A stretch of 51,722 nucleotides of DNA from a virus (lineage: Duplodnaviria; Heunggongvirae; Uroviricota; Caudoviricetes), in the IMG/VR virus record IMGVR_UViG_2579778650_000023. One strand, given 5' to 3'. The notes below the pieces were generated by a model. The model saw only the letters and a program-made list of their open reading frames with translations. It did not search any database and had not been told where the DNA came from. Position 1 is the first letter of the stretch, and the number at the start of each line of letters is the position of its first letter. Below are positions 11,897 to 19,463 of the stretch, in pieces. The translations under genes and the position numbers were made by a program.

Positions 11897-12433
11897 CTAG
11901 AACGGAATGTCATCATCAAAGTCCATCGGCGGCTCGTTAGACGGCGCTGCCGGAGCGGACTGCTGCGGGCGAGACTGCGCGCCGCCGCTGAACTGATTGC
12001 CACCCTGCGGCTGCTGAGGCTGACCCCAACCGCCCTGCGGCTGACCACCACCGATATTACCACCTGCCGGAGCGCCACCACCCTGACGACCACCCAGCAT
12101 CTGCATGGTGCCGCCAACGTTCACCACGACTTCTGTGGTGTAGCGATCCTGGCCGGATTGATCGGTCCATTTGCGGGTACGCAGCTGACCTTCGATATAA
12201 ACCTGAGAACCTTTACGCAGATATTCGCTGGCCACTTCTGCCAGTTTGCCGAACAGCACAACGCGGTGCCATTCAGTCTGTTCTTTCATCTCGCCGGTCG
12301 CTTTATCACGCCAGGATTCGGAAGTAGCCAGCGTAATGTTGGCAACTGCGCCACCATTTGGCATGTAGCGTACTTCCGGGTCCTGACCCAGATTACCAAC
12401 GAGAATAACCTTGTTTACGCCTCTGCTGGCCAT
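11897..12433 (-). CDS. ssb: Single-stranded DNA-binding protein SSB (178 aa)
   Basis: Translation [39 protein letters not shown]... with Gly/Gln-rich tail and C-terminal DFDDDIPF, characteristic of enterobacterial SSB; the true start is internal to the longer six-frame ORF. Confidence 0.95.
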
Positions 12434-16430: not shown

Positions 16431-17348
<918 letters not shown>

Positions 17349-17544
17349 TTAATTTTACGTTTATTATGATGAATCCTCGGCAAATGAGCGAAATTTGATA
17401 GAACATTTATCTGCTGTACGATTTAATGAACTTAATGATACAGCATTACAAAAACAATCGAAGTTTATAAAGATGATTTCTGATTGACCAGCCCCCTACC
17501 CTACAATGGTGATTAATTTTATTACTCGCGATGGAGATGATGAT

Positions 17545-18048
17545 ATGAATATATCATATGTGAATAGCAACAAAACGACATCTTTACCTGTTGAGCTAGA
17601 TGCACTAAATAATAAAGATATCTCTTATGCCAAAGATTTTTCTTATGCCAAAGATTTCTTTTTATACATAGAAACACAGTTAAAAATTGCAAAAGATTTT
17701 TGTAGACCTGGAGAAGAAGTATCAAGTTCTATTGCAAGTAAAGTTTTTCACGCATTTATTGATTTAGTTAACAAAATCAGGGGTAAGAAAGACTTTATGT
17801 ATATTTGCACGCTTTGCTGTTTTGCCGAGGAGGTTAAAGGTGATTATTCTCATTACAGGACCTTTTTATTTGATATTGGTAATCAATATAAGGTTAAACT
17901 TACACAAAGCGGAAAAAAAGAGCTCTCTTTAACTTTAGAATTTAACGATACTATAATTGAATCTCAGAAAGTCACAGGCAATAAGGCAAAGCATATTCTT
18001 GAGGATATAGAAAAATTCTATCGTAACAAACCCGATACTTATTATTAA
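17545..18048 (+). CDS. AT-rich hypothetical protein at the yjbS position between aphA and tyrB (about 167 aa)
   Basis: ORF on the opposite strand to its neighbours; GGAG Shine-Dalgarno before ATG 17545 (the six-frame ORF starts at 17506); AT-rich with an upstream AT-rich region; contains an in-frame 18-bp tandem duplication. Confidence 0.55.
   Translation: MNISYVNSNKTTSLPVELDALNNKDISYAKDFSYAKDFFLYIETQLKIAKDFCRPGEEVSSSIASKVFHAFIDLVNKIRGKKDFMYICTLCCFAEEVKGDYSHYRTFLFDIGNQYKVKLTQSGKKELSLTLEFNDTIIESQKVTGNKAKHILEDIEKFYRNKPDTYY
17623..17658 (+). repeat. In-frame 18-bp tandem direct repeat (2 copies, 17/18 identical) inside the hypothetical ORF
   Basis: tcttatgccaaagatttt / tcttatgccaaagatttc, encoding SYAKDF twice. 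Confidence 0.9.
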
Positions 18049-18269
18049 ATTTAATAATAGTTAGATGTGCAGAAATTATTACTCCACCCAAAAAAACAGG
18101 ATAAGGAATTCCAGATAATTAGGATAAGCTTAACAATAAAAGAACTAATAACGTTTATTATCTCTCACGTAGAACGATGGCATCAAAAAAATCATCTATA
18201 AAGAAAGAGTGAAAGCGACGACAGTTTAATTTCACTGCAGGCTGGGTAGCTCCAGCCTGCTTTCCTGCA

Positions 18270-19463
18270 TTACATCACCGCAGCAAACGCCTTTGCCACA
18301 CGTTGTACATTTGCCGTATTTAACCCGGCGACACACATGCGACCGCTGGCGATGAGATAGACACCAAATTCTTCACGTAGTCGGTCAACCTGAGCGGCAC
18401 TTAAACCGGTATAACTGAACATGCCGCGCTGATTAAGCAGATAATCGAAATTGCGTTCTGGCATCTCTGTGCTTAATACCTTCACCAATTCCTGACGCAT
18501 TGCCAGAATGCGAGTACGCATCTCTTCTACTTCCGCCAGCCAGCTGGCTTTCAATGCCTCGTCATTCAGCACTGCAGCCACCACCTGCGCACCAAAATTC
18601 GGCGGGCTGGAGTAGTTGCGGCGAACTGTTGCTTTCAATTGCCCCAGTACGCGGCCAGCGGCTTCGGCATCTTCACACAGAACAGAAAGTCCGCCGACGC
18701 GCTCGCCGTAAAGGGAGAAAATTTTCGAGAACGAATTGCTCACCAGAGCGGGTAATCCAGCGCTGGCAATGGCGCGAATAGCGTAGGCATCCTCTTCCAT
18801 ACCGGCACCAAATCCTTGATAGGCAATATCGAGGAATGGAATAAGCTCGCGGGCTTTGAGAATTTCAATCACCGCATCCCACTGATCATTAGTGAGATCG
18901 GCACCCGTTGGGTTGTGGCAACATGGATGCAGCAACACAATACTGCGGGCAGGTAATGTTTTCAGCGTCGCCAACAGGTCATTAAAGCGCACGCCGTTAG
19001 TCGCTTCGTCATACCAGGGGTAAGTACTCACTTCGAATCCAGCCCCGGCGAATATTGCTACGTGGTTTTCCCAGGTAGGATCGCTGACCCAGACGCCTGA
19101 TTCCGGGAAGTAGCGTTTCAGGAAATCCGCGCCCACTTTCAATGCCCCTGAGCCGCCAAGGGTTTGAATGGTTGCTACGCGCTGTTGTTGCAGTACTGGA
19201 TGGTCCGCACCAAACAGCAGCGGCGCAATGGCATGGCGATAGCTGTTAAGCCCTTCCATCGGTAAATAAAGCGAAGCGCCATGAGGCTGCGCATTCAGGC
19301 GCGCTTCCGCCTCCGCCACGGCTTGCAGTTGTGGAATAATTCCGTCTTCGTTGTAGTACAGACCGATACTTAAATTCACTTTGTCGCTGCGAGGGTCTTC
19401 TTTAAAACGCTCCATAAGCGTAAGAATCGGGTCGCCAGCGTAGGCGTCAACTTTTTGAAACAC
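18270..19463 (-). CDS. tyrB: Aromatic-amino-acid aminotransferase TyrB (397 aa, GTG start)
   Basis: [25 protein letters not shown]... and PLP-aminotransferase motifs ([16 protein letters not shown]); the six-frame ORF extends 14 codons upstream of the expected start. Confidence 0.93.

Follow-up and report, generated by a model that had tools for sequence, protein, structure and literature searches.

Is the AT-rich open reading frame (ORF) between aphA and tyrB of Escherichia coli a gene, and what does the tandem repeat inside it do? We addressed these questions in a DNA segment of 51,722 nt, referred to here as the window (the whole stretch analysed). The window has the gene order uvrA-yjbR-yjbQ-aphA-ORF-tyrB-alr-dnaB, which is identical in MG1655, and is a segment of the E. 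coli chromosome. A sequence-only reading had proposed that the ORF may be a longer, intact version of a horizontally acquired, strain-variable gene known in K-12 as yjbS, and that its repeat could be variable by slipped-strand mispairing. In this study, we consider it probable that the ORF is intact yjbS, a gene restricted to Escherichia and Shigella in an AT-rich cassette of ~1 kb at aphA-tyrB, the cassette being one of at least three fillings of this site.

Results

An AT-rich ORF of 167 residues between aphA and tyrB

The ORF is divergent from aphA and convergent with tyrB. It was confirmed as a 167-aa AT-rich frame opposite to both neighbours, with a GC content of 30.2%. The GC content was 31.6% in the surrounding cassette, 49% in aphA, 53% in tyrB, and 48.7% in the whole window. 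The features that define the ORF are as follows.

~17283-18269, no strand assigned: AT-rich variable cassette of ~987 bp that fills the aphA-tyrB interval, delimited by the alignment break against other site types
17533-17536, + strand: GGAG, a Shine-Dalgarno-like motif read from the sequence, 8 nt before ATG 17545
17545-18048, + strand: intact full-length yjbS-type ORF, with ATG at 17545 and TAA at 18046-18048

An in-frame ATG lies further upstream at 17506 and would make a protein of 180 aa. ATG 17545 is favoured as the start because the GGAG motif stands 8 nt upstream, because the gene start in the RefSeq annotation of other strains is at the matching position, and because the 13 upstream codons at 17506-17545 are free to vary among alleles (MVINFITRDGDDD, MVTNFITHEGDDD, MTNFITLEGDDG, and MVTNFITPDGDDD). 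Such variation argues that these codons are a leader and not coding sequence.

An ATG-started open frame of at least 161 codons appeared in none of 5000 shuffles of the cassette (maximum 144). The cassette holds only two further whole ORFs of at least 40 aa, a 44-aa GTG ORF (18067-18201) and a 67-aa antisense TTG ORF, which would be the candidates for a partner gene in a two-gene toxin-antitoxin or toxin-immunity module; annotation of either was absent in all genomes examined. The closest complete genome across the aphA-tyrB interval was that of strain 2011C-4251, at 99.9% identity, and its ORF is identical to that of the window.

K-12 yjbS and the decay of the ORF

K-12 was expected to hold yjbS in this interval. 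The K-12 gene (b4621, 'protein YjbS', WP_001321562.1, 67 aa) does lie between aphA and tyrB on the same strand as the window ORF, and the DNA of MG1655 is 97.6% identical to the window over the 1125 bp of the aphA-tyrB interval. Three indels were found within the ORF: K-12 lacks one 18-bp unit of the tandem array, has lost G17702, and carries A7->A6 at 17913-17919. The first 46 residues of YjbS are identical to the window protein save for the missing SYAKDF unit, and the two proteins diverge after the K-12 frameshift. K-12 therefore has one unit and two frameshifts. These comparisons support the view that the window holds the intact form of a gene kept in K-12 only as a 67-residue remnant.

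The frame is broken at the following sites.

17697-17702, + strand: TTTTTG, in which G17702 is missing in K-12, giving the frameshift to the 67-aa YjbS
17863-17867, + strand: T5 run, in which +1 T frameshifts the three-copy S10 allele to 115 aa
17913-17919, + strand: A7 homopolymer, at which A7->A6 frameshifts recur

A6 was found on at least three allele backgrounds, namely the K-12 clade, the window-type alleles L005 and L022, and L023; it was present in L035 too. In O157:H7 the allele has a single unit and lacks 10 bp (17910-17919), which leaves 119 aa. Other lesions were IS1 insertions, an ISKpn26 insertion, and an IS1-associated deletion of almost the whole cassette. Frameshifted alleles gain second lesions, as K-12 carries A6 in addition to the lost G, a pattern that points to decay in one direction rather than to reversible switching.

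Insertion sequences have hit the cassette repeatedly (L025:2894-3874; L032:5288-5985; hits H12 and H258). ISKpn26, of the IS5 family, breaks the ORF in HCP4S3_I4, IS1 is inserted in the cassette of NCTC11121 and KMi012, and in EC96 IS1 stands in place of nearly all of the cassette; EC96 also has an internal stop in aphA. It has been reported that IS1 insertion into yjbS arose twice in a macrophage-adaptation experiment (PMC4999529). Another report listed K-12 yjbS as 'essential only by TraDIS', with few transposon insertions (PMC5821084). The paper itself does not consider H-NS, but K-12 yjbS is the remnant of a pseudogene and lies in AT-rich DNA bound by H-NS, so that the call would more likely be an insertion-bias artefact than a sign of essentiality.

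Intact alleles in the RefSeq annotation

RefSeq (PGAP) labels the intact ORF of 161-173 aa a 'frameshifted' pseudogene at L001:1902-2405, and likewise at L009, L012-L018, L020, L036, and L037. In 2011C-4251, the strain with the ORF of the window, RefSeq gives a 'frameshifted' pseudogene together with an 83-aa 'hypothetical protein' (WP_000275035.1). This 83-aa protein is just the C-terminal half of the intact ORF, and it was added in many of the genomes examined. The label apparently arises because the 67-aa K-12 YjbS is taken as the reference. As the intact length class predominates in the genome sample, the mislabelling is probably widespread. Using the full-length form as the reference would clear the false 'frameshifted' calls and the spurious 83-aa protein.

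Distribution of the cassette and fillings of the aphA-tyrB site

The cassette boundaries were determined by alignment against a short-spacer strain and the B2 strain IHE3034, and the edges are the points where the alignment ends. The ~145 nt that precede the aphA ATG are shared by all site types, and identity returns at the tyrB stop codon. Of the 5426 complete E. coli genomes, 4358 (~80%) carry the cassette, a count that holds at blastn sensitivity. A short aphA-tyrB spacer of 336 bp, unrelated to the cassette, was found in only 19 genomes (L004:3001-3336).

An 'empty site' in cassette-free strains was considered and dropped: just these 19 genomes have a short spacer, and IHE3034, the one genome examined from the rest of the cassette-free group, carries a 13.7-kb island in the cassette's place (L033 / L034:804-14197). 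The island encodes a sensor kinase, a sigma-54-dependent regulator, a DASS family symporter, an Ldh family oxidoreductase, a SucA-like protein, OdhB, LpdA, SucC, and SucD. A previous report placed the KguS/KguR alpha-ketoglutarate island (c5032-c5041) between tyrB and aphA in CFT073 (Cai et al. 2013, PMC3694859), and the IHE3034 island matches this published island of UPEC. The ~1050 of 5426 genomes with neither the cassette nor the short spacer probably carry a KguS/KguR-like island or another insert. Judged from the alignments, the site has at least three alternative fillings, the yjbS cassette among them. The aphA-tyrB interval is an exchange point whose fillings separate UPEC-type strains (KguS/KguR) from most other E. 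coli.

A second variable site lies next door, between tyrB and alr. In L004, L028, and IHE3034 it holds a gene for an AAA-family ATPase and pnuC (L004:4612-6132). The window has no insert there, and alr follows tyrB directly.

The ORF was then classified in 60 carrier genomes, which were picked at regular intervals along the ranked hits and sorted by the length of the matched segment.

Two units in frame: 28/60
One unit in frame: 2/60
K-12 type: 21/60
O157 type: 4/60
A7->A6 frameshift: 3/60
S10 type (three units and the +1 T frameshift): 1/60
ISKpn26 (IS5 family) insertion: 1/60

The ORF was in frame in 30/60 sampled carriers, so full length is not conserved in all strains. All fetched in-frame alleles (11/11) were intact, at 167 or 161 aa. 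By this count the ORF would be kept in roughly half of the carriers, or ~40% of the genomes in a collection that over-represents laboratory K-12 derivatives and O157. These results agree with the proposal that the gene is strain-variable, both in the presence of the cassette and in the intactness of the ORF. With the frame lost in about half of the carriers sampled, any function of the gene is dispensable.

Foreign-DNA status and regulatory signals

Previous reports have dealt with the K-12 counterpart of this DNA. The K-12 tyrB/yjbS segment (4266514_318) has been classed as a 'promoter island' in overlap with a gene predicted to be foreign (Panyukov and Ozoline 2013, PMC3661553 Table 1). The island was bound by H-NS in two ChIP-chip data sets and is listed as transcriptionally defective (PMC3661553). 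When 1-kb segments of the K-12 genome are ranked by GC divergence, this segment is in the top 20 (PMC2575891).

We searched for signs of transfer. No true mobile copy was found by tblastn against plasmids and phages: phages gave no match, and the 'plasmid' matches were mislabelled chromosomes or chromosome fragments. The only repeat near the cassette ends was an imperfect inverted pair of 11 nt, which is at chance level. No donor lineage, integrase, or att-like repeat was found for the cassette. Horizontal acquisition, as the sequence-only reading had proposed, is thus supported: it has in its favour a GC content of ~31%, an Escherichia/Shigella-only distribution, and the published H-NS binding and foreign-gene calls in K-12, but, since no donor, mobility gene, or boundary repeat was found, its support comes from composition and distribution. 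Alternatively, the gene may have arisen de novo in an AT-rich spacer.

An Rfam scan of 17100-18300 at E <= 1 gave no RNA family. In a scan for promoters and terminators, promoter-like sites were not enriched and the sole terminator-like match was on aphA's side. TTGACC (17484-17489) with TACAAT (17502-17507) was rejected as a promoter, as the 12-nt spacer is too short for sigma-70. The stretch between these hexamers (17490-17501, AGCCCCCTACCC) is a C-rich patch in an otherwise AT-rich leader, and O157 differs from it (AGAACCC). On the side of tyrB, a hairpin was found.

18237-18260, - strand: terminator-like hairpin with a 9-bp stem and no U-run, 9 nt downstream of the tyrB stop (-20 kcal/mol, z = -2.6)

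The hairpin is kept in EC96, where IS1 replaced the rest of the cassette. It lies within the variable cassette and not in the conserved tyrB flank, which makes it a feature of this site type only, and the other fillings must end tyrB transcription in a different way.

Relatives and predicted structure of the protein

The window protein has 167 aa, a mass of 19.4 kDa, a pI of 7.6, and no hydrophobic segments. It gave no match in Pfam, NCBIfam, PHROGs, PADLOC, or a sequence search of the PDB. Among 5.8 billion proteins 64 matched, all from Escherichia. A profile search of 1.84 billion representative proteins found no remote homologue outside Escherichia/Shigella, and its hits were only fragments of the same protein. 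A literature search with the protein's accession numbers returned nothing relevant.

The predicted model has a pLDDT of 68 and a pTM of 0.66, with residues 1-32 below 50; confidence is moderate, the five models ranging over 53-68 pLDDT, and the underlying alignment is shallow, with six sequences that share >=87% identity. The predicted fold consists of a disordered N-terminus (~32 residues), three helices, a five-stranded antiparallel sheet, and a C-terminal helix. In this model, the tandem array would lie at the border of the disordered tail and helix 1. A fold search against solved structures and predicted viral-protein structures gave no significant match. The HMM and structure predictions called for by the sequence-only reading therefore yielded no curated family and no recognisable fold.

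A bolder reading of these data, which we hold only tentatively, is that full-length YjbS is a functional protein of E. coli and Shigella only, with an unmatched alpha/beta fold. It would be a young de novo gene that arose in an AT-rich spacer, or the last copy of an unsampled family. Selection would keep it in ~40% of E. coli, where it would be the commensal/B1-A-E-type counterpart of the KguS/KguR island that UPEC carry at this site. In that case, it would have been overlooked because the K-12 reference allele is a pseudogene, so that RefSeq marks the intact copies as frameshifted.

Selection on the intact ORF

We next examined whether the ORF evolves as coding sequence. Pairwise dN/dS was calculated by the method of Nei and Gojobori from 12 diverse intact alleles out of 18 distinct ones, and medians were taken. 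Locus L008 (57% protein identity, many indels) was left out, as it looks like a low-quality assembly. The value was 0.38 in the ORF frame; the two shifted frames gave 0.86-1.26, and the frames of the opposite strand 0.55-0.99. A minimum of 27 synonymous and 45 non-synonymous events accounted for the 18 alleles, where ~80% non-synonymous events are expected if neutral (binomial p = 3e-4). Variable sites numbered 15, 25, and 34 at codon positions 1, 2, and 3, respectively. A dN/dS of ~0.4 corresponds to weak constraint, and it comes from ~72 events in alleles picked for intactness. At the sequence level, the data support a real but weakly constrained coding sequence, under weak purifying selection while intact.

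These values bear on the possibility that the ORF is a relic and that the AT-rich, H-NS-bound promoter-island DNA acts on aphA or tyrB, for example by supplying the terminator of tyrB. A relic could account for the listing of the K-12 counterpart as a transcriptionally defective, H-NS-bound promoter island, for the frame being broken in about half of the sampled carriers, for the tyrB hairpin located within the cassette, and for the lack of a family or fold match. However, it leaves unexplained a 167-codon frame at 30% GC that shuffling of the cassette never produced, and the avoidance of amino-acid changes in the ORF frame only (0.38 vs 0.55-1.26 in all other frames). Moreover, intact alleles last across deeply diverged clades, and changes in the repeat always keep the frame. 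We therefore regard a relic as unlikely, and an intact yjbS gene as the better account.

The 18-bp tandem array and its copy number

The repeat reported by the sequence-only reading was confirmed as two adjacent in-frame copies, and a related motif was found further downstream.

17614-17659, + strand: in-frame 18-bp tandem array of two complete units (17623-17658) and a partial AAAGAT(N3) register, encoding KDI-SYAKDF-SYAKDF
17688-17701, + strand: dispersed third copy of the TGC(C/A)AAAGATTTTT motif (repeat family D1), encoding IAKDF

Unit 1 (17623-17640, TCTTATGCCAAAGATTTT) and unit 2 (17641-17658, TCTTATGCCAAAGATTTC) match at 17/18 bases. Both units are in frame and encode SYAKDF twice, as residues 27-38; with the third motif copy, AKDF is present three times in the protein. 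Tandem Repeats Finder reported 17614-17659 with a period of 18, 2.6 copies, and a score of 78, the count being 2.6 because AAAGAT also stands before unit 1. No period-18 tandem with at least 17/18 matches arose in 2000 shuffles of the cassette (0/2000). The array is the higher-scoring of just two tandem arrays within the 51.7-kb window. The other (12014-12053, 21 bp x 1.9, score 59, minus strand) lies inside ssb, where it falls in the glycine/glutamine/proline-rich C-terminal linker of the product.

Across E. coli genomes, the array has one, two, or three units, which gives proteins of 161, 167, or 173 aa with the frame kept. Otherwise identical proteins have one unit in 14EC047 (L020), two in the window, and three in 12A and FXCREC004 (L009 and L037). 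The array is therefore not invariant and varies from one to three units on near-identical alleles. Three-unit alleles occurred in 19 genomes (0.4% of carriers) on at least four backgrounds. In the S10-type three-unit allele, which is derived from a K-12-like allele, every unit ends in TTTC, and in the other three-unit alleles the units end in TTTT. No four-unit allele was seen, the maximum being three; ECNB21-M121 had been suggested as a four-copy allele by a gapped match, and was rejected because it has three units.

Single-unit alleles are of two kinds, KDI-SYAKDF in K-12 and KDF-SYAKDF in O157, L021, and L026. By sequence, each kind matches a two-unit form that has lost a different one of its units. 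The two-unit state is present in all major allele clades, and its units there have diverged by point substitutions, so that the simplest reading is a two-unit state that is old and probably ancestral. If so, the single unit of K-12 would be a contraction, and the pair in the window is not a new duplication. The proposal of a slipped-strand-variable repeat thus holds, with a copy number of one to three and repeated independent changes. AAAGAT(N3), which recurs every 18 bp, would provide the microhomology for slipped-strand mispairing.

Could the repeats or the homopolymer make yjbS a phase-variable contingency gene, in which slippage in the 18-bp array or at A7 toggles expression reversibly within populations? 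We consider this highly improbable. A7->A6 on at least three backgrounds and recurrent copy-number change in the array are what such a gene would show. However, each 18-bp unit spans six whole codons, and a change in copy number therefore alters the length of the protein and never the frame or the expression state. The arrays have three units at most, a run of seven A is short as phase-variation tracts go, and A8 alleles were not seen. The piling up of second lesions in frameshifted alleles argues for one-way decay, and strain d1-58 has the same copy number in two independent assemblies.

It is highly improbable that the number of repeats is functionally tuned, with the SYAKDF units and the third AKDF as a binding or recognition module and the one- to three-unit forms selected by niche: AKDF does occur three times, and the two-copy state is old, dominant, and in frame even where its units are point-diverged in several clades, but the units would lie in or beside a low-confidence and probably disordered N-terminus, three-copy alleles are rare and scattered, copy number has no apparent link to host or source among the rows listed, and non-synonymous changes are frequent within the units (SYSKDF, SDAKDF, SYTKDF, and SYDKDF).

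Discussion

With intact yjbS as the preferred reading, the behaviour of the locus would be as follows. The cassette of the window would be bound by H-NS, as others have shown for K-12. Replication slippage would gain or lose whole six-codon units of the array in frame, producing near-neutral length variants of one, two, or three units. The gene is dispensable and has been lost many times, through slippage at A7, T5, and T5G, the 10-bp deletion, and IS1/IS5 insertion. The protein may be a niche-specific accessory factor with no housekeeping role, a suggestion that we make with low confidence.

The main outputs of this study are a corrected view of yjbS, the identification of an artefact in the RefSeq annotation, and a picture of aphA-tyrB as an exchange point. 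The consequences are modest, and they have no bearing on long-standing open questions. The locus is a compact case of an orphan gene with measurable purifying selection yet repeated loss via slippage-prone runs, and may be a test case for how species-restricted genes come and go.

The KguS/KguR island is the closest known neighbour of the cassette in position. Island and cassette fill the identical site between aphA and tyrB, as mutually exclusive alternatives. The island differs in its size of 13.7 kb and its ten genes, nine of which have a known role, and it has no sequence similarity to the yjbS cassette.

The feature in the window joins two kinds that are already known, the AT-rich orphan gene of H-NS type and the in-frame coding minisatellite (VNTR). 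As in H-NS-bound AT-rich promoter islands and xenogeneic ORFans, the cassette has ~31% GC in a genome of ~50% GC and is restricted to one species. Unlike promoter islands, the window region has no excess of promoter-like sites (6 vs 5.0 expected), and its H-NS binding is known from the K-12 allele only. In-frame coding VNTRs serve in MLVA typing of enterobacteria; to our knowledge, the yjbS array is part of no typing scheme. Like them, it has head-to-tail units with a length that is a multiple of three, a copy number that is polymorphic among strains, and recurrent homoplasic changes by independent events, consistent with slippage. Unlike typical MLVA loci, the yjbS array is very short, and with only one to three units it is far less variable.
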